From NCBI GenBank assembly GCA_011043375.1, contig DQYP01000172.1:1-39086 (forward strand): a DNA stretch of 39,086 bases, written 5' to 3'. The stretch is from Thermotogaceae bacterium (lineage in GTDB: Bacteria > Thermotogota > Thermotogae > B21-G9 > HyVt-16). A program made the translations under genes and the position numbers. Under the pieces are notes generated by a model that made no database searches, had not been told where the DNA came from, and worked only from the letters and a program-made list of their open reading frames with translations. Below, piece after piece: positions 9,526 through 37,651 of this stretch. The first letter of the stretch is position 1. The number at the start of each line of letters is the position of its first letter.

Positions 9526-10820
9526 TGTTTTATACACCGCGCACAATAAATTGGAGTAAAATCTCAGAGAAACCTCTAGCACTTCCTACACATTCGTTTG
9601 TGCATTGGGATTTTTCAAATGGGGCACCACATAGCCTTAAAACCATTCCTGTTTCTTTCTTAAATTCGGATTTTCAGATACAAACTCTCATAAAAATAGA
9701 TGATACATTCTATGCATCCGCCTACAACATGACTAATGACAAAGGTTATATTTTTAAATTTCACCTCGATCAGAACGAGGATATAATCTTGGACACTCAA
9801 AAAGAAGTCACTATAGTTGAAGATTCGGTTACCTACGCCGTACCGACAGCTATGCTTTATTTAGATGGATATATCTATTATGTTTTAAGCACCGACCCCT
9901 TTACGGAGATGTATATTTATCGAATTGATACTGATTTAAACACTCCTGAGTTTATAAAACACGAAAACAGTTTCTCCTGTATCGGAATGGTCTATTATAA
10001 AGGAAAAATTTACGGGCATTCAAGCGTTGCCGAAGGCAACATCATTTACGTGATGGATACGTCATTTAATTTGATAGATCAATTTGAGTTGCCTTATGGT
10101 GATGAAATATTCGTGCTCTCAGGGCACGGGGATATGACAGTTTATCAAAACAAACTCCTCTACACGGCATACGGGGCGTTGTATTATGTTCTAATCGATC
10201 CTGAAACATGGGAAATTGAAGCACGCCCTGCTAAATGGCATACAAATAAATGGTTTGAATGGGATGGAAAACATCTATGGATGTCCTTAGGGGACGGTGC
10301 TTATACTTACTTGGTAAAAGCCGATTCTTCTGTCTTATTGGGTGATGGTATTTATCTTGCTCAATTTCATCCAGTTGAAACCACATCAAAAAACCTGATT
10401 TTTGACTCCAACGGCCTGTGCCCTGTTTCCGATTACGCGAGGATTTTCGTGCCTTATCAAGCAAAAATATTTGGAGCGCGTTTTATAAGATTGAGTGATA
10501 CAAACGGCGAAGCGTATATTGATTTGTTCTTTTCGCTGGGTTATGTGCACTTGATTTTTGATTCAACCGATGTTTTAGTTAAACAAGGCAATACTACCAC
10601 CTCTATCCAGAGTATCACATGGGATATTGGAACACCTCTCGATGCTTCTATAGATTTGTATCGAAACCTGTTACATGTAACTGTAGGTGGTTCCACTTAT
10701 TCAATTGATCTTGATGATGTTTTAACACTTCGGAATACTGAAGAACAAGTCACATTGCCACGCTATTTTATTTCAGTCCCTGCAGGAGCTAGTATAAAAT
10801 ATGCTTTCATTCAGTATTAA
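9525..10820 (+). CDS. hypothetical tail/baseplate protein
   Basis: 431-aa ORF coupled by a TAATG overlap. Beta-rich and aromatic-rich sequence with repeated Y/W segments. Function assigned by position only. Confidence 0.6.
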   Translation: MFYTPRTINWSKISEKPLALPTHSFVHWDFSNGAPHSLKTIPVSFLNSDFQIQTLIKIDDTFYASAYNMTNDKGYIFKFHLDQNEDIILDTQKEVTIVEDSVTYAVPTAMLYLDGYIYYVLSTDPFTEMYIYRIDTDLNTPEFIKHENSFSCIGMVYYKGKIYGHSSVAEGNIIYVMDTSFNLIDQFELPYGDEIFVLSGHGDMTVYQNKLLYTAYGALYYVLIDPETWEIEARPAKWHTNKWFEWDGKHLWMSLGDGAYTYLVKADSSVLLGDGIYLAQFHPVETTSKNLIFDSNGLCPVSDYARIFVPYQAKIFGARFIRLSDTNGEAYIDLFFSLGYVHLIFDSTDVLVKQGNTTTSIQSITWDIGTPLDASIDLYRNLLHVTVGGSTYSIDLDDVLTLRNTEEQVTLPRYFISVPAGASIKYAFIQY

Positions 10821-17375: not shown

Positions 17376-17596
17376 TCATCCCACCCCCTTCTCAATTCCT
17401 TAAGAGCTTCGAGTTCTTCGTAATAGTCTTCTACTATTTCGGAATAATTAGTCTTGCCAATCGTTGTTAGTAGCACTCCATTAAATTTAACTTCAACATC
17501 GCAGCCTAATTTTTCTTTCATCTTCAACATTTCTTTTGCACATTCATCGATGGTAGTTCCTGCTAAACATTCCATTTTTATCAGCAATACACTCAT
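17372..17596 (-). CDS. hypothetical protein
   Basis: Operon-coupled by an ATGA overlap. Confidence 0.6.
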   Translation of the reverse strand: MSVLLIKMECLAGTTIDECAKEMLKMKEKLGCDVEVKFNGVLLTTIGKTNYSEIVEDYYEELEALKELRRGWDE

Positions 17597-18390
17597 TCTA
17601 TCACTTCCTCTTCTGTTTCGGTTTTAAGACTTTGGATCTTCTTTTTGAGTGCTTCTATAAGTTGTGAGGCTTGATTTCTGTCAATCTCTTTGAGAGATTC
17701 CACTCCAATTTGCTTCTTGATCTGTTGTTTTAACACCTCAGGGTTAACATCAGCTCTTTTAGCCCAATCGTTTATAAGGGCATGGATGTATTTAAGTTGA
17801 TTCTCTGAGACTGCTGGGGTCTGTTCTTCTTGAATCTGTTGATTGACTTCTTTGATTTCCATTTCTTCGTGTTCAATTTCTTCTTGCTCTCTGAACTCTC
17901 TTCCAAGTAATTGCAGTATAGCTCTGTTCTTTGCTTTGGTCACTGCAATTCGCGGTAGGAAGGAATACATCCTGATAAGATGGTTAATATACTCCAGTTG
18001 TAAATCAGGTGTTGGGAAAGCTGGAATTTTGCCCCATGGTGAATCAATAGTGCCTGTGCTCATAACCTCTTCTCGCGTTATCTCCTTCCTCTTGATCTTT
18101 TTAAGCATTTTCTGCAGGAAAGTTTTATATGCTTCGGTTACGTATTCTAACCTAACCCATTCTTCCGCTTCCACTCCATCCCTCGTGCGTGCCTTTACTA
18201 CCACTTCAACCCCTTTTTCATCTGCGTGGTGATATACAACGTATGTTGAAATGCCTCTATCTACGCCTTGTTTTATAACCGCAGCGGCGTTAGGTACTTT
18301 TTGGTTTTCTACGATATAATACCCATCACGTTTTTGAATATAATCCATAACGATTGATCCCTTATCCTCATATCGCTGGATTTCTGCCAT
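17593..18390 (-). CDS. hypothetical protein; the C-terminal helical module (..NQLKYIHALI..NQASQLIEALKK) resembles DNA-metabolism accessory domains
   Basis: ATG 18390 lies 6 nt after GGGAGGG. No family assigned with confidence. Confidence 0.55.
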   Translation of the reverse strand: MAEIQRYEDKGSIVMDYIQKRDGYYIVENQKVPNAAAVIKQGVDRGISTYVVYHHADEKGVEVVVKARTRDGVEAEEWVRLEYVTEAYKTFLQKMLKKIKRKEITREEVMSTGTIDSPWGKIPAFPTPDLQLEYINHLIRMYSFLPRIAVTKAKNRAILQLLGREFREQEEIEHEEMEIKEVNQQIQEEQTPAVSENQLKYIHALINDWAKRADVNPEVLKQQIKKQIGVESLKEIDRNQASQLIEALKKKIQSLKTETEEEVIE

Positions 18391-18414
18391 AAACATCCCT
18401 CCCTTTTGGAAACT

Positions 18415-24594: not shown

Positions 24595-24803
24595 TGTATA
24601 TCAATACCGAGATAATACGTCAAGAACGTTTAAAGAAAATTATCGATACTTTGCGCATAATAAGAGATGTTATATCAGATATAGCAATCGATGATGGATG
24701 GCTCGTGATACGTTTAAAACACGGTTCGATAATGAAAACGCAAAATTATTGGCTTGATGCAGAAGACGCAGAATGGTTAAAATACATGATCAAGGAAACT
24801 TGA
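24594..24803 (+). CDS. hypothetical protein (paralogue of 25199..25405); a GTG at 24591 is an alternative start
   Basis: GTGATG overlaps the upstream stop. The pattern ..IIDTLRIIRDVISD..VIRLKHG.. is similar to the 25199 product. Confidence 0.55.
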   Translation: MYINTEIIRQERLKKIIDTLRIIRDVISDIAIDDGWLVIRLKHGSIMKTQNYWLDAEDAEWLKYMIKET

Positions 24804-24831
24804 AGCGATCGACTCAATCGACTCAAATCAC

Positions 24832-24856
24832 GCGGGGCACTCAAGCCCCGCTTTTT
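24832..24856 (+). terminator. rho-independent terminator of the rightward early operon
   Basis: GCGGGGC-actcaa-GCCCCGC followed by TTTTT. Confidence 0.8.
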
Positions 24857-25136
24857 GCGTAAAAAATCAGGAAATTTAAATCGCATAAGGTAAATTATAT
24901 ATACAAGATTACGTTTTTCGCATCTCTTACGTCATTTTAACCCCATGTTTAGATTACTTAAACTACGCTTTAATTATTCTAACATTATTTTTGTGTAAAA
25001 GATGTTTTACATGGTCAATGATATAATCACCATAATAAAATTAGCACTCTCACCTTGAGAGTGATAACATATATGGCATAAAATAAGGCATATGATATGC
25101 CTTATGTTTTGTAACATTCTATTAACATTTCTTTTA

Positions 25137-25160
25137 TTGACTTTTCATAATCAGTATAAT
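25137..25160 (+). promoter_or_regulatory. candidate promoter of the single-gene cassette 25199..25405
   Basis: AATCAGTATAAT (25149-25160) is identical to the -10 region at 21316-21327. TTGACT at 25137 lies only 12 nt upstream, so the -35 assignment is uncertain. Confidence 0.4.
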
Positions 25161-25198
25161 AGAATCGGATTGACAATCGCAAGAGGGGGGATGATAAA

Positions 25199-25405
25199 AT
25201 GGTGATGTATAGCTGGGAGAGAAAAGGAAAGATATACGAGAGGATTATAGCACGCTTGAGGATGTTTACTGATATTATAGCACTTGACTATAAAGAGAAG
25301 TTTATTAAGGTTATCCGAAAAAACGGGACTGGAATTATTATACCAGTCCCGGAATTGAAAAAAGATGATATTGACTTTCTGAGAGATGAATTAGTTAAGG
25401 CATAA
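25199..25405 (+). CDS. hypothetical protein in a stand-alone promoter-to-terminator cassette
   Basis: RBS GAGGGGGG 8 nt upstream. Flanked by the terminators at 24832 and 25428. Confidence 0.6.
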   Translation: MVMYSWERKGKIYERIIARLRMFTDIIALDYKEKFIKVIRKNGTGIIIPVPELKKDDIDFLRDELVKA

Positions 25406-25427
25406 TTATTTATATCTTATCATCATC

Positions 25428-25454
25428 ATCCCGGCTCATGCCGGGATCTTTTTT
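25428..25454 (+). terminator. rho-independent terminator
   Basis: ATCCCGGC-tcat-GCCGGGAT followed by CTTTTTT. Confidence 0.8.
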
Positions 25455-25504
25455 ATCCTATTTAACAGGTATACAATTGTATACTATCAGAGGATAAAAT
25501 TAAA

Positions 25505-25523
25505 GGGCGCCTTATCGGCGCCC
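25505..25523 (-). terminator. rho-independent terminator of the RHH-like gene
   Basis: GGGCGCC-ttatc-GGCGCCC. On the minus strand it is followed by TTTAATTTT. Confidence 0.65.
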
Positions 25524-25544
25524 TGACTTGTGAGATATATAGTT

Positions 25545-25721
25545 TTATGCGTTTACTTTTTTCAAGATGTCTTCAAGTTGTCTCATTTCGGGTTTGCTCT
25601 CTATGAGCTCTCTTACTGCTTTCTCTATGGCCCTTTGGATGCTTCCATAAGCTGCTCTCAAAACTCTAACCTCACTCTCTTTCAGCTCAATCGCATACCT
25701 CATAGTCCTTTCACCCATCAT
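25545..25721 (-). CDS. small regulator, ribbon-helix-helix-like (CopG/Arc type) candidate
   Basis: ATG 25721 follows AGGGGGT. 58 aa with the predicted pattern short strand (RYAIELKE) then two helices. It has its own promoter and terminator and lies adjacent to the iteron region. Confidence 0.4.
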   Translation of the reverse strand: MMGERTMRYAIELKESEVRVLRAAYGSIQRAIEKAVRELIESKPEMRQLEDILKKVNA

Positions 25722-25775
25722 AAAACCCCCTTTCAAGTTTTTTTCATTGACCCTTCATCTCACTTTCCATTATAC

Positions 25776-25804
25776 TTTATACACCACGCATTATAAAAAG
25801 TCAA
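25776..25804 (-). promoter_or_regulatory. sigma70-type promoter of the RHH-like gene
   Basis: The minus strand reads TTGACT, a 17-nt spacer ending in GTGGTG, then TATAAA. Confidence 0.5.
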
Positions 25805-26066
25805 GTAACAGAAATGTTAACATCATGCTATTTATATGTTATCAACCTTTAATCACATTTAACACCCTCTATTATCCCTTATATCATGCTATCCCATCTC
25901 ATATCTTATAGTCATTTAACATTTCTCATATCATATAAATCTGAGTTTATTCTATCTAACACTCATATTAGATTCCCTAATCCCATTTTATTCTCTATAA
26001 TACTTTATCCCATCTTGTATCATTAGCCCTCTTATATCTATATCGATATATCTATATCGTTATATC

Positions 26067-26119
26067 TATCTAATGTCAAGTATGCTTTACATCTTTATTA
26101 TATCTAACATGTCAAGTAT
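26067..26119 (+). repeat. two copies of TATCTAA(T/CA)TGTCAAGTAT
   Basis: Copies at 26067-26083 and 26101-26119. Confidence 0.7.
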
Positions 26120-26152
26120 ATTTGACACTATAACTGTCATACTTCTATATAA

Positions 26153-26230
26153 CAGTTAGACAGTTAGAGAAAAGCAGGTATTGTAAAAGCAGGTATTGTA
26201 GACGATATATATAATATATATATCATCGTC
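26153..26230 (+). repeat. tandem CAGTTAGA x2, tandem AAAGCAGGTATTGTA x2, then a 30-bp AT palindrome
   Basis: CAGTTAGA lies at 26153-26160 and 26161-26168. AAAGCAGGTATTGTA lies at 26171-26185 and 26186-26200. GACGATATATATAATATATATATCATCGTC lies at 26201-26230. Confidence 0.8.
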
Positions 26231-26386
26231 AATATATCCTCTTATCTCCCATTATAGGCCCTCTTATTCCAGAGTCCTCTCATATCGGGGACTTATACTC
26301 TCATATATTCATACGTATACTATTATATATCGTGTCGTAAAAGAGATATTTTACGACATTATAGCTTATATCTCATTACTTTTAGG

Positions 26387-26443
26387 TTATCTTATCTAAC
26401 GTATTAGTTATCTTATCTAACATGTTAGTTTATCTTATCTAAC
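26387..26443 (+). repeat. three tandem iterons TTATCTTATCTAAC spaced 21 and 22 bp apart
   Basis: Exact 14-mers at 26387-26400, 26408-26421 and 26430-26443. The TATCTAAC core also occurs at 25953 and 26101. Confidence 0.85.
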
Positions 26444-26553
26444 ATTATACCTCATTAAATGTTAGTTACTATAAAAGATGTTTTTTACGCTATTACCCCT
26501 ATACCCTTATTTTACGTAGAGAATGAGAGGGAATGGGGGTATACTAAAAAAAT

Positions 26554-26692
26554 TACATTTAAAAATTAAAACTTTTAAGAATTAGAATTCTAATATAGTT
26601 ACCATTATCATAAGAAAAACGGAGATATAGCATCAGAAGATTTATAGTTTGCATGTTATACGATACAGAAAAAATACATTTAAAAATTAAAA
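26554..26692 (+). repeat. 18-nt direct repeat TACATTTAAAAATTAAAA
   Basis: Copies at 26554-26571 and 26675-26692, each preceded by an A-run. Confidence 0.75.
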
Positions 26693-26885
26693 TTTCATTA
26701 TAGTTATAACTACGAGAAGAGTACTATAGTATAACATCAGGGAATTTATGAATTCTATATTACACAGTTCATGATATAGAAAGCTGATATAGTAAAGTTG
26801 CTGTTATATAAGAGATATAACTGGCGTATAGAGAAAGGGATAATATGAGAGGCTCCTGTTATAGTTATAAGGCTCTATATAATTA

Positions 26886-26925
26886 TTCGGGTTTTTCTTA
26901 AATATTTCGGGTTTATTTCGGGTTT
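26886..26925 (+). repeat. three copies of TTCGGGTTT
   Basis: Copies start at 26886, 26906 and 26917. Confidence 0.7.
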
Positions 26926-26936
26926 ATATAATAAAA

Positions 26937-26958
26937 CAGCCCTCTTATAAGAGGGCTG
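26937..26958 (-). terminator. rho-independent terminator ending the long leftward operon
   Basis: Perfect palindrome CAGCCCTCTTATAAGAGGGCTG. On the minus strand it is followed by TTTTATT. Confidence 0.75.
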
Positions 26959-26976
26959 GGATATGAAATTATTTAT

Positions 26977-28185: not shown

Positions 28186-29520
28186 TCACCTCCCAAACTT
28201 TTTATACCATATTTCTTGAGAATTGTCAAGATACTTTTCAATCCTTCTTAAAAGGTCAGCTACTCTCCCCCCTAAAGAAGGAGAGCTTGCTCTACCGGTT
28301 TGACCGGGAGCATTAGGCTGGCTGACAAGCAGCCCCTTTAGATTCTCTTCTTGGGTTTTTGAAAGCTCACGAAGTGCGATATTGATCGCTCCAACTATAT
28401 CTGCATGCTCTTTGTAACCACAGTTCTGACAAACAAATCTTTCTCCATGGTTGGGTCTGTTGTTTTTTGAAACGTACCCGCACACAGGACATGTTTGAGA
28501 GGTATAGCTTGGATCTACATATACAGCTTGAACTCCGTAGTATAAAGCTGCTTTGTATTCGATCTTCTTCTGGAGCGATGCAAAAGGCCATTGCTCAGCT
28601 TGCCGTCTTGCTTCTTTATCTTTGCCGCGATACGTAACGCGGTTGGAGCGAATCTGAGTCAGGTCTTCCAAGACAAACCTAGCCTGAGGATGGGATTCAA
28701 CCAGGGTTTTTGAAACGATGTGTAGCACGTTCTCGGTAAACCGTTTTTCCCGCCTGCTAAGCTTCTGGAGTTTTCGCTTAGCAGAGCGGGTGCCTTTGGA
28801 CATTAGCTCAGAGCGCAGGTTGTGATAACGTTGTTTTCTGCGTTTGACTTCCTCAGGCAGATTGACAAGATATTTCTTTCCGGTTGTTGAAGCAACAGCC
28901 ATGATATGTCTTTCGCCAACATCGACTCCGACGATTTCTTTGGGACGCCGCTCTTGAATTTCAAGAGTTACAGGAACCAAGAGAAAGAATGTCTTAGAAG
29001 AGCGATCATAACTGAGGATAGGATCACCGATTTTCCCTTGTCGCAGGTACTCATAATGCTTATTCCAACCGTAGATTCGTATCCACTTTAGACGGCCTTG
29101 CAGAGTTGAAATGGAAACGTAGATTTCGTTCCAGTTGGCAAATTTGAAAGATACAGTTCTGTTGTACGTGTATTTGGCGATTAGAGACTTTCGCTTTGGA
29201 GGCTTATCCCAAAATTTCTTAGTAGCTTTCGAATCTGGCTTTCTGCGTTTCAACTCTTTGAACTGAGCCCAAAGGGTTTTGTAGATCGCAGCGGCGTCTC
29301 TGTTAACGTTCACAGCAAGTTGAGCAGGAAGACCAAATCGCTCTCTGATAGTCACATAATATGCATGGTGTAGTTTCTTCACATTAGTGGTCTTATCAGA
29401 CAGGTTTTTAGACAGCACAAAGTTTACGGCTTCTGTATACGCTTCAGCCGTCTCAAACAATTGCCTCTTTTGCTCTTTTGTGGCGTCAAACTTGAATTTA
29501 AGCATAAGCACCTGTTTCAT
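28186..29520 (-). CDS. tnpB: TnpB (IS200/IS605-family OrfB, RuvC-like RNA-guided nuclease)
   Basis: Typical N-terminus MLKFKFDATKEQKRQL. RuvC triad candidates are GVDVGE, FVLEDL and HADIVGAINIA. Zinc ribbon CPVCG..CQNCG. The tracked ORF starts at TTG 29526 and ATG 29520 is preferred. Confidence 0.85.
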   Translation of the reverse strand: MKQVLMLKFKFDATKEQKRQLFETAEAYTEAVNFVLSKNLSDKTTNVKKLHHAYYVTIRERFGLPAQLAVNVNRDAAAIYKTLWAQFKELKRRKPDSKATKKFWDKPPKRKSLIAKYTYNRTVSFKFANWNEIYVSISTLQGRLKWIRIYGWNKHYEYLRQGKIGDPILSYDRSSKTFFLLVPVTLEIQERRPKEIVGVDVGERHIMAVASTTGKKYLVNLPEEVKRRKQRYHNLRSELMSKGTRSAKRKLQKLSRREKRFTENVLHIVSKTLVESHPQARFVLEDLTQIRSNRVTYRGKDKEARRQAEQWPFASLQKKIEYKAALYYGVQAVYVDPSYTSQTCPVCGYVSKNNRPNHGERFVCQNCGYKEHADIVGAINIALRELSKTQEENLKGLLVSQPNAPGQTGRASSPSLGGRVADLLRRIEKYLDNSQEIWYKKFGR

Positions 29521-29522
29521 CT

Positions 29523-29792
29523 TCAATCACCACTATATGAGATTATATTCCAGATAAAGAGATAGCCCCAGTATCCTGTATATAGTGCTTTTAGGTAAGA
29601 GAAAACTGGAAAATTAAATATCATTTGCAGTCCTATTACGCCGAATGGAACTACTATGAATGTTATAAAAAGATCTTGTGCTATTATTGACCATATTGGT
29701 GTTTTTAAAATAGCATATTTCATAACCTGCAGAGTTATAATCATGCGCAGCGCTAATACTACCCAGAAAGCTATCCAGAGAACTATCATCAT
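29523..29792 (-). CDS. small integral membrane protein (about 3 TM)
   Basis: RBS GAGGAGGTGA. Hydrophobic throughout. The stop overlaps the tnpB start region. Confidence 0.6.
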   Translation of the reverse strand: MMIVLWIAFWVVLALRMIITLQVMKYAILKTPIWSIIAQDLFITFIVVPFGVIGLQMIFNFPVFSYLKALYTGYWGYLFIWNIISYSGD

Positions 29793-31413: not shown

Positions 31414-31447
31414 TGGTAGAATTCTGGTAGAATTACTTGGTAGAATT
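31414..31447. repeat. three tandem copies of TGGTAGAATT at the XRE-gene/methylase junction
   Basis: Copies start at 31414, 31425 and 31438. Confidence 0.75.
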
Positions 31448-32008
31448 TTCAAACAGCTTATCCAGCTCTTCTTTTAGCTCAGGTGGAAGTTGAACACAGC
31501 GAAAACTATCCGTTTGAAGTTCTTTGCCATCAAAATAAGCCTCTATAAACTGTTGCGTGGGATCATATTCTTGGGCCTTAGATTGGTCTATAAGAACTTT
31601 GCCATGGTATTTGTCTTTTAGCAACGCTTCTATGGTGGGTTTCATTTCGTAAGCAAAGTAATGAGTTTTGATTTTGATAACTTTCAGACCTTTATAGTCT
31701 TTAATATCGACGAATTCTGGATAATATTTCTGCTCAAATTCCAGTCTAGGTTGCAAACCCAATTTGCTAAATATTTTTGCAATTTCGCTTATTTTAAGGT
31801 CGTATTCGCCTTCTTCAATTGCTTGGTAGGTTTTCAAATCAATTTCAAGATATTTTGCCATATCTTCTTGCGTGAGATCATATCTTTTTCTATAAGCCAT
31901 CAATTGCCCGCCTATTTGTGCTTTAAGAGAGATGAGGTATTCGTATTCTAAAGACAATTTTGCTCCAAGATCACGCATAAGTTCGAAGACGTTTGAATAA
32001 ACCTTCAT
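31433..32008 (-). CDS. XRE-family helix-turn-helix protein with C-terminal extension
   Basis: The HTH_3-like segment is YRKRYDLTQEDMAKYLEIDLKTYQAIEEGE..ISEIAKIFSKLG. Confidence 0.7.
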   Translation of the reverse strand: MKVYSNVFELMRDLGAKLSLEYEYLISLKAQIGGQLMAYRKRYDLTQEDMAKYLEIDLKTYQAIEEGEYDLKISEIAKIFSKLGLQPRLEFEQKYYPEFVDIKDYKGLKVIKIKTHYFAYEMKPTIEALLKDKYHGKVLIDQSKAQEYDPTQQFIEAYFDGKELQTDSFRCVQLPPELKEELDKLFENSTK

Positions 32009-32630: not shown

Positions 32631-33182
32631 TTATTCTGTCTCATCTATACTTTTTAAAAGCTGTTCTGCGGCTTTTGTGTACGGTTTGTAATACCGTAAC
32701 GCTTTAGCAAGCTCGTTCACATCGACTATGATATATGAACCAGAATCTTTGTCATAGCAAACTCTTACATAGAAAGTCTTTGGCCAGAATGGGTATTTAA
32801 CTTTTTGACGACTTGTTATACCATTCACTTCTCCTGTAAAAGCAGTTCCAGATTCATCAACCCAAACTATGGCGTTGTTATAATAAACCGTATCTCCATC
32901 TTTAAAGAGAGCTGAACAGCGTCTGCTTTGATATTTGTTTTCGCCAATTTTCTCCCATTCTTCTTCACCTTGATAAATAGGGGCCAGAGGCATCTTCAAG
33001 AGGCGATTTTCAACCAACTTGGCTATTTTTGGTGCAAACCAGTGCGCAGTGAAACCAGAATGAAGCTGTTTATCAAAAATTGCTTTCATTCTTTCAATAA
33101 CTCCGATAAAGTCTTCATACACTTTCCACTCGTCTTCAGAAACATGCTTTTTAAGATATTCCCATTCCGTCACACCCAACAC
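32631..33182 (-). CDS. hypothetical protein (start TTG 33182 or GTG 33173)
   Basis: RBS GGGAGG immediately upstream. Confidence 0.55.
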   Translation of the reverse strand: MLGVTEWEYLKKHVSEDEWKVYEDFIGVIERMKAIFDKQLHSGFTAHWFAPKIAKLVENRLLKMPLAPIYQGEEEWEKIGENKYQSRRCSALFKDGDTVYYNNAIVWVDESGTAFTGEVNGITSRQKVKYPFWPKTFYVRVCYDKDSGSYIIVDVNELAKALRYYKPYTKAAEQLLKSIDETE

Positions 33183-33504: not shown

Positions 33505-33584
33505 TGGCAGGGGCGGTGGGATTCGAACCCACGTTAGCCTTCGGGGTAGAAACCCGATGCTCGATCCAGCTGAGCTACGCCCCT
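33505..33584 (-). tRNA. tRNA-Arg (anticodon UCU) with encoded CCA and an unusually long 8-nt variable loop
   Basis: Manual fold on the minus strand: acceptor AGGGGCG/CGCCCCT, D arm GCTC-AGCTGGATC-GAGC, anticodon arm TCGGG-TTTCTAC-CCCGA, variable AGGCTAAC, T arm GTGGG-TTCGAAT-CCCAC, discriminator G, CCA. Confidence 0.8.
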
Positions 33585-34027
33585 GCGTTCTGTTGATTAA
33601 TTTTGTTGGAATTTTTAAATACTTTTACGAAACAATCCAGCATCTTGCGAGCCACATATCCATAATCCAATCTATCGATTTGTAAGAGCTCTTTTTCTAC
33701 CCAAATCTGCACATAAATAGTGAGCCAATCATCTTCTTCCGTCTCTACGCCGTTGTATCTAATCATAGCAGGATTGATGTTATAATTCTCTTTTAAAAAC
33801 AGTAAAGCTTTTCCTGCTATCCAGTCGACGCTTGTATCCTCACCCCAAGGAAAAGCCTCCAACACTTTATCAAACTCTGTCTCGCTGATATAGTCGAACA
33901 ATTCTTCGCTCCCGAAGTAATCCACTTGTACAGTGAAAAGATATGCATCAGCCGCATCTGAAAAGCCCACTTGTATTCTTAAATCTAGTTCTGGTATAGT
34001 GTCCACGAAAGTGTGAAGCACACTCAT
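33575..34027 (-). CDS. hypothetical protein (the alternative GTG 34123 start would add a basic low-complexity extension)
   Basis: ATG 34027 lies 8 nt after GAGGAG. The last three codons overlap the tRNA 5' acceptor strand. Confidence 0.55.
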   Translation of the reverse strand: MSVLHTFVDTIPELDLRIQVGFSDAADAYLFTVQVDYFGSEELFDYISETEFDKVLEAFPWGEDTSVDWIAGKALLFLKENYNINPAMIRYNGVETEEDDWLTIYVQIWVEKELLQIDRLDYGYVARKMLDCFVKVFKNSNKINQQNAGA

Positions 34028-34127
34028 CGGTCTCACTCCTCTTCTTGAACCAAAACCTCGCCTTTCACCTTTCTTTTCAGAGTTATCATCTTTCTCCCCT
34101 CCCCTTTTTCCATTTGTTTTCACTCAT

Positions 34128-34297
34128 CTGTTCACCTCCCAATCTTGGCCAAGTATTTTCTAAAAGGTTGGAGGCTTTGGCGGGCGCTGAGGCCCACCGA
34201 CGGTCATTTTCGCCCCCTCGCACTCAGGCGACGGGTTGCCTCCACCCATTCCCTCTCCCACCCCCGCCTTCACGGTCGGGGGGGAACCACAACCTTC
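34128..34297 (-). ncRNA. GC-rich structured RNA / leader candidate (family unknown)
   Basis: By eye this ~170-nt island is far more GC-rich than its AT-rich flanks. It starts directly downstream of a near-consensus promoter, has many complementary G-run/C-run segments, and carries no credible ORF. Confidence 0.45.
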
Positions 34298-34304
34298 ACT
34301 ATTA

Positions 34305-34333
34305 TATATACCACACTTTTCAAGGTTTGTCAA
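34305..34333 (-). promoter_or_regulatory. near-consensus sigma70 promoter
   Basis: The minus strand reads TTGACA, a 17-nt spacer ending in TGTGG, then TATATA. Confidence 0.6.
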
Positions 34334-37622: not shown

Positions 37623-37651
37623 TATATACCACATTTTTCTTGTTTTGTCAA
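37623..37651 (-). promoter_or_regulatory. near-consensus sigma70 promoter
   Basis: The minus strand reads TTGACA, a 17-nt spacer ending in TGTGG, then TATATA. Confidence 0.55.

Follow-up and report, generated by a model that had tools for sequence, protein, structure and literature searches.

The question raised by the locus described here is why a short segment of phage DNA, lying directly behind a near-consensus promoter, should be so much richer in G and C than everything around it, and whether it gives rise to a functional RNA. The locus occupies positions 34128-34333 of the minus strand of a 39,086-nucleotide contig (DQYP01000172.1 of assembly GCA_011043375.1, assigned to a Thermotogaceae bacterium); this whole stretch is called the window below. 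An initial annotation, made from the letters alone, had proposed a structured RNA with the flavour of a riboswitch or attenuator. Our analysis shows that the segment is most likely a non-coding structured RNA candidate on the minus strand, since it lies behind a credible promoter, does not encode a protein, and has predicted helices that are kept by base changes in related phages. As to its role, we favour, at a probability of about 0.4, an RNA domain that acts in cis, as a leader or between cistrons, in an early counter-defence operon.

The minus-strand segment is present letter for letter as it had been quoted. Sliding-window calculation, which had been suggested as a check of the claimed GC spike, gives a mean of 38.5% GC for the whole stretch with a standard deviation of 5.3%, against 62.7% for the 150 nucleotides (nt) at 34150-34299 and 70% for the richest 120 nt (34165-34284), the top peak of the 39 kb, so that the spike stands about 6 standard deviations above the mean. 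The runner-up peaks reach 57.5% and are found at a tRNA and within the tape-measure gene. This tRNA, a tRNA-Arg(TCT) at 33505-33584 on the minus strand, is supported by the Rfam tRNA model and by a tRNA call, and it is the only other GC peak near the segment, as had been noticed before. The part predicted to fold is a module of about 135 nt at 34162-34297 on the minus strand (roughly 66-70% GC), bounded by a helix termed P1, and will be called the element. It is present in a single copy in the window: with the covariance model R1 it reaches 178.6 bits, against 12 bits for the best of the other matches.

Relatives of the locus came solely from members of the clusters of its flanking proteins, and across all data searched only three sequence variants of the element were obtained: that of the window, to which L001 and L002 are identical, that of locus L005 (98.6% identity over the element) and that of locus L003 (~92%). 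Single sequences and their alignment were folded at 37-80 °C, and the folds converge on the same helices, P1-P6; the consensus fold described here is that at 70 °C, and all its coordinates refer to the minus strand. P1 joins GAAGGU (34297-34292) at the 5' end to ACCUUU (34168-34163) at the 3' end by six pairs that are 100% paired in the three variants. P2 is a hairpin of eleven pairs (34257-34285), in which a run of seven C residues faces GGGGG.GG below an apical GUGAA loop. It is followed by a purine-rich, single-stranded linker of 12 nt, J2/3 (GAGAGGGAAUGG, 34245-34256), and by a four-way junction domain (34169-34244). In this domain P3 (UGGAGGC 34244-34238 with GCCUCCA 34175-34169), which stacks on P1 through one continuous 3' strand, closes three hairpins: P4 (34235-34214, loop CUGAGU at 34227-34222), P5 (34213-34200, a weak helix of 3-4 bp) and P6 (34198-34179, loop CUCAGC at 34191-34186). 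The loops of P4 and P6 (L4 and L6) are Watson-Crick complementary over 5 nt, with a chance probability of ~0.005 per loop pair, or ~0.03 when six pairs are allowed for. Both loops are invariant across the variants, and the predicted contact between them is thus without a covariation test.

Several complementary segments had been listed in the initial annotation, and three of these are part of the fold: CCCCCG/CGGGGG in P2, GGAGGC/GCCTCC in P3 and GGTTG/CAACC in P1. The remaining two, GGGT/ACCC and TCGCC/GGCGA, are alternative pairings that find no support, and the former is broken in the L003 variant. It had also been suggested that the 3' sequence GCCUCCAACC could engage in alternative pairings. 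This is not what the fold predicts, in which GCCUCCA/UGGAGGC of P3 and the adjoining ACCUU/AAGGU of P1 form simultaneously. Folding is more favourable on the minus strand (-66.9 kcal/mol) than on the plus strand (-59.2 kcal/mol), and the folding z-scores of the three variants are -2.6 (window), -2.8 (L005) and -1.2 (L003).

Comparison of the three variants reveals 15 variable columns. Ten are situated in helices, and nine of the ten keep the pairing, the tenth being a shortened C-run that is able to slip; the nine include all seven substitutions at paired positions, and none of the 10 substitutions overall disrupts a helix. Two one-sided changes in P1 (G·U to A-U and U-A to U·G) and three in P6 all still pair, and these five one-sided helix changes all run through G·U; such pairs are valid on the minus-strand RNA only and would be A·C mismatches on the opposite strand. 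In L003 both sides of a P2 pair have changed, from C-G to U-A, and a whole A-U pair of P3 is gone through two separate 1-nt deletions, 69 alignment columns apart. On the model-fitted alignment, 112 of 112 cells are paired. In a neutral simulation in which the observed 10 transitions and 3 deletions were placed at random, the probability of no broken pair was 0.006 and that of at most one was 0.048. A null model of transitions only is appropriate here, given that the genes on either side are biased likewise (33:3 and 16:0). Folding with homologous loci, another check that had been suggested, thus finds helices preserved by base changes in related phages, with modest support. Together these observations point to a structured RNA on the sense strand, the comparative support being modest and inconclusive.

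The same data can be read in another way, namely that the element is a functionless GC-rich relic, either a scrap of foreign DNA or a decayed gene between recombining cassettes, and that chance and transition bias account for its apparent conservation. The known variants number just three and are close to one another (92.5-98.6% identity); the bias is as strong in the flanking genes as in the element; the value for at most one broken pair is just 0.048; the locus is a deletion hotspot; and the lineage is tiny, with a remote relative of the downstream gene that lacks the element. On the other hand, the element has stayed intact through at least two flanking deletions, the two 1-nt deletions in P3 strike both partners of one pair, and the change from C-G to U-A in P2 is a double one. 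Both lineages retain its composition, which lies 6 standard deviations away from the genome's, and its fold beats shuffles in two of the three variants. Moreover, no source sequence was found in GenBank phages, in the IMG/VR, metagenome and GTDB scans, or in the protein clusters. A mere relic is therefore regarded as unlikely.

A protein-coding element could be ruled out by its frame-shifting indels and substitution ratio. Between L003 and the window there are three separate 1-nt deletions within the element and none in the two flanking genes. The deletions shift the frame twice, and the single stretch of shared frame has three nonsynonymous changes to one synonymous. A public gene call of the Joint Genome Institute (JGI) at L003:1617-2006, 129 amino acids (aa) long with a GTG start, runs through the element into an 82-aa gene, and this open reading frame (ORF) has a proper Shine-Dalgarno (SD) sequence and ATG for its last 82 codons only. 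No relatives of the 129-aa ORF beyond its own cluster were found among 5.8 billion proteins, and the call is probably an over-extended annotation.

That no known RNA family fits the element had been judged by eye, and database searches agree. With the Rfam 15 covariance models, tRNA alone passes the gathering thresholds in the whole window, and at E values up to 10 the window and L003 copies of the element gave only sub-threshold chance matches, with no riboswitch, ribozyme, packaging RNA (pRNA), transfer-messenger RNA (tmRNA) or other match. These sub-threshold scores were those of blv_FSE (25.8 vs 34 bits) and Flavi_NKV_xrRNA (19.2 vs 50 bits), and the latter similarity is absent from the L003 copy. 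BLAST of the locus and the element against GenBank phages returned the tRNA or noise only. Among the 5.8 billion proteins, the 150-aa, 108-aa and 129-aa (L003) proteins found only their own clusters at 90% identity. Scans of IMG/VR with four proteins and two exact DNA patterns gave nothing, or chance matches that model R1 rejected; an 18-mer scan of metagenomes gave 22 chance matches in GC-rich contigs, with extended similarity in the contig of L005 only; and a 24-mer scan of GTDB genomes gave none. Model R1 has no match in the Marinitoga viruses MPV1, MCV1 and MCV2, and at the sole remote homologue locus of the 150-aa gene (L041, L042) neither the element, by model R1, nor a tRNA was found. 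Searches of the literature gave no account of the phage or of the RNA. The element thus appears to belong to a very narrow phage lineage and to represent a new RNA family without detectable relative, the known general kind being that of phage-encoded structured leader or non-coding RNAs.

Several specific classes were tried and rejected. A miniature inverted-repeat transposable element (MITE), a repetitive extragenic palindromic (REP) sequence or another dispersed repeat is rejected on the one copy in the window, no match in IMG/VR or GTDB and no source at unrelated loci; such a multi-copy GC-rich repeat, which the initial annotation had named as a possible refutation, was looked for and not found. 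An intrinsic terminator or transcription attenuator, defined by a G+C-rich hairpin with a minimum of 5 U in the 8 nt directly behind it, was rejected, as the scanner detects none on the minus strand where the element ends; the U-run after the element is 4 nt long (5 nt in L003) and partly inside P1. The omega-RNA of TnpB or an IS605 end does not fit either: tnpB is 4.6 kb away, model R1 finds nothing there, and no repeats are shared. The phi29 pRNA model (RF00044) has no match at E up to 10, and the genome is not that of a phi29-like podovirus. A tRNA or tRNA-like RNA was rejected on the lack of any tRNA-model match at E up to 10 and on ARAGORN, which calls nothing at 100-80% of its thresholds and gives inconsistent calls at 70-60%; the likeness to tRNA is limited to the four-way-junction topology, the 7-bp closing stem and an NCC tail. 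Finally, an antisense relation to the 150-aa gene was suggested by a 12-nt perfect match between AAAGCCUCCAAC (34166-34177, minus strand) in the element and GUUGGAGGCUUU (33850-33861, minus strand); L003 retains the gene side but has lost the element side, and this complementarity is probably due to chance.

The promoter sequence itself was confirmed. It is of the sigma-70 type (34305-34333, minus strand), with TTGACA at -35 (34333-34328), a spacer of 17 nt and TATATA at -10 (34310-34305), preceded by a TGn extended -10 motif at 34313-34311. A generic promoter scanner missed the site solely from requiring T at position 6 of the -10 hexamer. Five matches to the pattern TTGACA-N16-18-TATA are present in the window, where 0.38 would be expected, and none of 100 shuffles reaches five. 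The sites are 37625-37651, 34307-34333, 28203-28229 and 26053-26079 on the minus strand and 26122-26149 on the plus strand, the pair at 26053-26149 being divergent. The minus-strand copies at 37651, 34333 and 28229 have TTGACAA...GAAA..T(G/A)TGGTATA in common, where the GAAA motif is followed by TGTGGTATA or TATGGTATA. This family of five and its common flanking motifs are the reason why the promoter at 34305-34333 is taken as real, beyond a chance match. Its hexamers and the TGn motif are invariant in L003, L005, L006 and L007, and the spacer varies. The start site is inferred at ~34300-34297, and P1 begins 1-4 nt downstream of it in the window and in L005. In the remaining promoters of the family, a leader of just ~20 nt ends directly in the ribosome-binding site GGAGGTGA; the promoter at 34333 alone among them is followed by a long GC-rich leader. 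No operator-like inverted repeat was seen by eye at the promoter.

A G-quadruplex motif (GGGGGTGGGAGAGGGAATGGG, 34265-34245, minus strand) overlaps the 3' strand of P2 and J2/3. At the level of sequence it is the sole match to (G3+N1-7)x3 G3+ in the 39 kb on either strand; it is kept in the window, L005 and L003, and lies ~35-55 nt downstream of the inferred start site. A promoter that directs transcription into a non-template G-cluster brings to mind a role at the DNA level, in which an R-loop or a G-quadruplex would prime replication or promote recombination, and the locus is indeed polymorphic, with indels on both sides and both arrangements present in sample ERZ27248172 (L006, L007). However, one such motif is expected by chance in ~4-5% of cases at this composition (5% of whole-window shuffles and 3.9% of element shuffles), and the compensatory changes and G·U wobbles point to selection for an RNA hairpin on the same G-tracts. 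In L003 the promoter is ~300 nt away, and a better candidate for an origin or regulatory region, with repeats and divergent promoters, is found at 24800-26970. A role of the DNA or of an R-loop is thus extremely improbable.

The neighborhood of the element differs between the variants. In L003 the order is promoter, 86-aa gene, element, SD, 82-aa membrane-protein gene, 235-aa, 106-aa and 150-aa genes and tRNA; the element begins at the stop codon of the 86-aa gene, and no promoter of its own is obvious by eye. In L005 the order is promoter, element, 20 nt, SD, a 13-codon ORF, 106-aa gene and 150-aa gene. The window is like L005, with an additional 264-nt in-frame deletion that leaves 18 codons of the 106-aa gene. 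In L006 and L007 the contig stops at this locus; the two represent one arrangement each, and both come from ERZ27248172. The ribosome-binding site that had been noted after the segment, GGGAGGTGA, is present as the SD sequence GGGAGGUGA at 34132-34140 on the minus strand and is homologous, by alignment, to the SD directly after the element in L003. The ATG at 34127 is also present as claimed, but it opens merely a 13-codon ORF (MSENKWKKGRGER*, 34086-34127, minus strand). This ORF is the remnant start of the 82-aa membrane-protein gene of L003, and its stop codon overlaps the next ATG (ATGA), that of the 18-codon ORF (34033-34089, minus strand), which BLAST and ORF comparison with L005 and L003 identify as the remnant of the 106-aa gene. 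The first full gene downstream is the 150-aa orphan gene (33575-34027, minus strand), followed in the same transcription unit by tRNA-Arg(TCT). Gene decay at 34033-34127 (minus strand) is apparent against L003:1759-2995 and L005:678-998; both arrangements occur in one sample, and assemblies break here.

The element has remained intact despite the gain or loss of the upstream 86-aa gene and of the downstream 82-aa gene, 235-aa gene and most of the 106-aa gene. In both arrangements it is followed by a homologous SD and ATG, which persist where the gene body is deleted; the spacer between element and SD measures 20 nt in the window but 0 nt in L003. Similarity between the flanks of these two loci stops exactly at the ends of P1, which are also the ends of the module. 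Because the flanks diverge at these points and the element was kept while neighboring genes came and went, it is a discrete module that is not tied to the promoter.

The element lies within a minus-strand block of small genes that begins at the right end of the window and is closed by a strong terminator at 26958-26937. Downstream of it and in the same direction follow the 150-aa orphan, tRNA-Arg, a 72-aa orphan, a Tad3 protein, two small orphans, a helix-turn-helix (HTH) protein, an N6/N4 methyltransferase and TnpB. In the Tad3 protein (32631-33182, minus strand), the Pfam domain of Tad3, a type I Thoeris inhibitor, scores 51.9 bits against a cut-off of 27. In the HTH_3 protein (31433-32008, minus strand), the C-terminus shows a weak match to the RnlB antitoxin, whose 25.4 bits fall short of the cut-off of 27. 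The tnpB gene (28186-29526, minus strand) encodes OrfB_IS605 and Cas12f1-like TNB domains. The operon looks like an early region of counter-defence type.

In the favoured reading, minus-strand transcription would include the element in a long operon that runs leftward through small early genes and candidate counter-defence genes, the element forming the 5' leader in the window and in L005 and an intercistronic spacer in L003. Its very stable closed structure would define and protect the end of the downstream message and would present the strong SD that always lies 0-20 nt behind it. It might also be a docking site for a protein regulator, by analogy with the 5' untranslated regions (UTRs) of anti-defence operons. 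In favor of such action in cis, the homologous SD and ATG stay attached to the element, and no terminator of its own follows it.

Several points weigh against this reading. A simple hairpin would suffice for protection of mRNA, and a fold of five to six helices with complementary loops suggests a more specific role, be it in binding a ligand or protein, in catalysis or in trans. The arguments for action in cis are weak because the tRNA of the same operon is processed out without a promoter or terminator of its own. Folding with the flanks is context-dependent and gives inconsistent accessibility of the SD. The three variants amount effectively to two lineages and the P value of the simulation is modest; the shuffle control on the pair count (172/500) is uninformative with three sequences; and the fold was derived from the very sequences used for its comparative support.

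Three kinds of known cis-acting RNA invite comparison. Structures that stabilise mRNA, such as the leaders of ompA, ermC and aprE, the SP82 stabiliser and, in many copies, the REP elements, have the form of simple hairpins. Like these, the element is GC-rich and stable, lies near a 5' end or between cistrons and has AU-rich flanks; unlike them, it is single-copy and architecturally complex. In phage HK022 the put antitermination RNAs consist of two hairpins in ~65 nt, putL lying just after the early promoter and putR after the first gene; we know of no relatives outside HK022-like phages. As compared by description, the positions of putL and putR parallel the arrangements in the window and in L003, respectively, but downstream of the element no terminator was identified except that at 26958-26937. 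In anti-CRISPR (acr-aca) operons, structured 5' UTR motifs are bound by the HTH proteins Aca2 and Aca1, the motifs being one or two short hairpins that mimic the DNA operator (PMC13551039). The element resembles these in its location between start site and SD, behind a strong early promoter, in an operon of small genes with Tad3 and an HTH protein, and this position is found in the window and L005 but not in L003, where it is intercistronic. It also differs in its predicted 135-nt multi-junction fold.

Ranked nearly as likely is a second, doubtful but possible explanation, that the element is a stable small RNA cut from the polycistronic transcript and acting in trans. It might be a cloverleaf-like decoy, a sponge, or a scaffold for a host or phage protein, for instance an RNA-processing enzyme or a defence nuclease that targets tRNA; another possibility is that its complementary loops allow it to multimerise. 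The module is closed by P1, has AU-rich flanks and boundaries that coincide with recombination breakpoints, its GC content is tRNA-like, and the neighborhood is a candidate counter-defence region in which the tRNA shows that the operon yields RNAs lacking their own promoter and terminator. The P3-P6 domain of 79 nt is closed by a stem of 7 bp, after which both variants read NCC, and it contains three hairpins of which the first and third have complementary loops. On the other hand, no tRNA, tmRNA, Y-RNA, pRNA or other Rfam model matches at E up to 10, and ARAGORN finds nothing at 80% of its thresholds or above. In its arm lengths, its spacers (AA, AAA) and the sequences of its loops the element departs from tRNA, the NCC tail doubles as the 3' strand of P1, and the only antisense match of 12 nt, which is to the 150-aa gene, has been lost in L003.

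Two phage RNAs provide precedents for such an RNA. The pRNAs of the phi29 family (RF00044) are ~120-170 nt long, arise from a strong early promoter and have paired ends and complementary loops that drive ring formation. The element shares with them the phage origin, a similar size, an early-type promoter, paired 5' and 3' ends and two complementary loops. Its host phage, by contrast, is long-tailed and related to Marinitoga siphoviruses, and the complementarity of its loops could be intramolecular. The small stable RNAs C and D of T4 are encoded beside the T4 tRNA cluster, and to our knowledge they have no known function. The element likewise looks stable and structured and shares a transcription unit with a phage tRNA; no sequence relationship is expected, and processing of the element is putative.

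The suggestion of a riboswitch or attenuator, in which the leader would sense a ligand and switch pairings to control the downstream genes, fares less well. Riboswitch aptamers, such as the purine aptamer, are multi-helix junctions closed by a P1 helix, with loop-loop contacts. The size of the element, its closing P1, its junction, its possible kissing loops and its location directly upstream of the SD recall this typical architecture, and in each variant the sequence around the downstream SD could pair with the 3' strand of P3 (CCUCC; in L003, CCCC). However, the element has no similarity to an Rfam riboswitch class and gives no clue to a ligand, and there is no terminator hairpin with a U-run. 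There is no conserved expression platform, since the spacer to the SD is 20 nt in the window vs 0 nt in L003, and P1 and P3 are compatible rather than exclusive. The downstream genes vary between the variants and are without metabolic annotation, and the link to the promoter is not obligatory, as the 86-aa gene lies between them in L003, where the element is not tied to a 5' UTR. A riboswitch or attenuator in the usual sense is very unlikely. A bolder idea, decidedly unlikely as well but less so, is that the element is the founding member of a new class of thermophile-phage RNAs, either a tRNA-shaped counter-defence decoy or scaffold, or a riboswitch or self-cleaving ribozyme with an L4-L6 kissing contact. 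The decoy version is based on the company of the element, which sits with Tad3, the RnlB-like HTH protein, an orphan methyltransferase and a phage tRNA.

As to the phage itself, the window encodes a tape-measure protein and a tail protein, and the latter shares 39-42% identity with its counterparts in Marinitoga camini viruses 1 and 2 and Marinitoga phage MPV1. The window TnpB has its nearest genomic relative in a metagenome-assembled genome of Thermotoga sp. from the Guaymas Basin (88% protein identity, ~80% at the nt level). From the Marinitoga-virus-like tail protein and the Guaymas Thermotoga TnpB relative, the source is most likely a siphovirus, not yet cultured, that infects Thermotogota of hydrothermal sediments. 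The scanned ORFs include no identified head or packaging genes and the window starts in the tape-measure gene, so that the contig may be a partial genome. A phage Mu GemA-domain protein is encoded at 17593-18396 on the minus strand (33.2 bits vs a cut-off of 27). For the 150-aa orphan protein, an AlphaFold2 (AF2) single-sequence model has a pLDDT of 83 and a pTM of 0.80, with no significant fold match in the PDB; one remote homologue (41% identity) was found among 1.84 billion cluster representatives.

Some further observations were made in passing. One consensus promoter overlaps the last codons of tnpB. The region 24800-26970 is an ORF-poor, AT-rich 2 kb with 48-nt direct repeats 105 nt apart (26568, 26673) and further AT-rich repeats, and it also holds the divergent promoter pair, making it a candidate regulatory or origin region. 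In Marinitoga phage MPV1 (L031), a run of CCGGCA repeats at 10260-10340 follows a tRNA-Pro and precedes the small terminase gene; it may be a packaging-site repeat, unrelated to the element.

With three known copies, the element is for now an orphan candidate, a lead rather than a result. Its detection indicates that the use of GC spikes to find structured RNAs in AT-rich thermophile genomes, a heuristic known from cellular genomes, works on phage contigs too. Almost nothing is known about regulation or counter-defence at the RNA level in viruses of Thermotogota, and the presence of a recognised Thoeris-inhibitor domain in the operon makes a link to counter-defence worth pursuing. If its fold and function are confirmed, the element would represent a new structured RNA family from Thermotogota phages.

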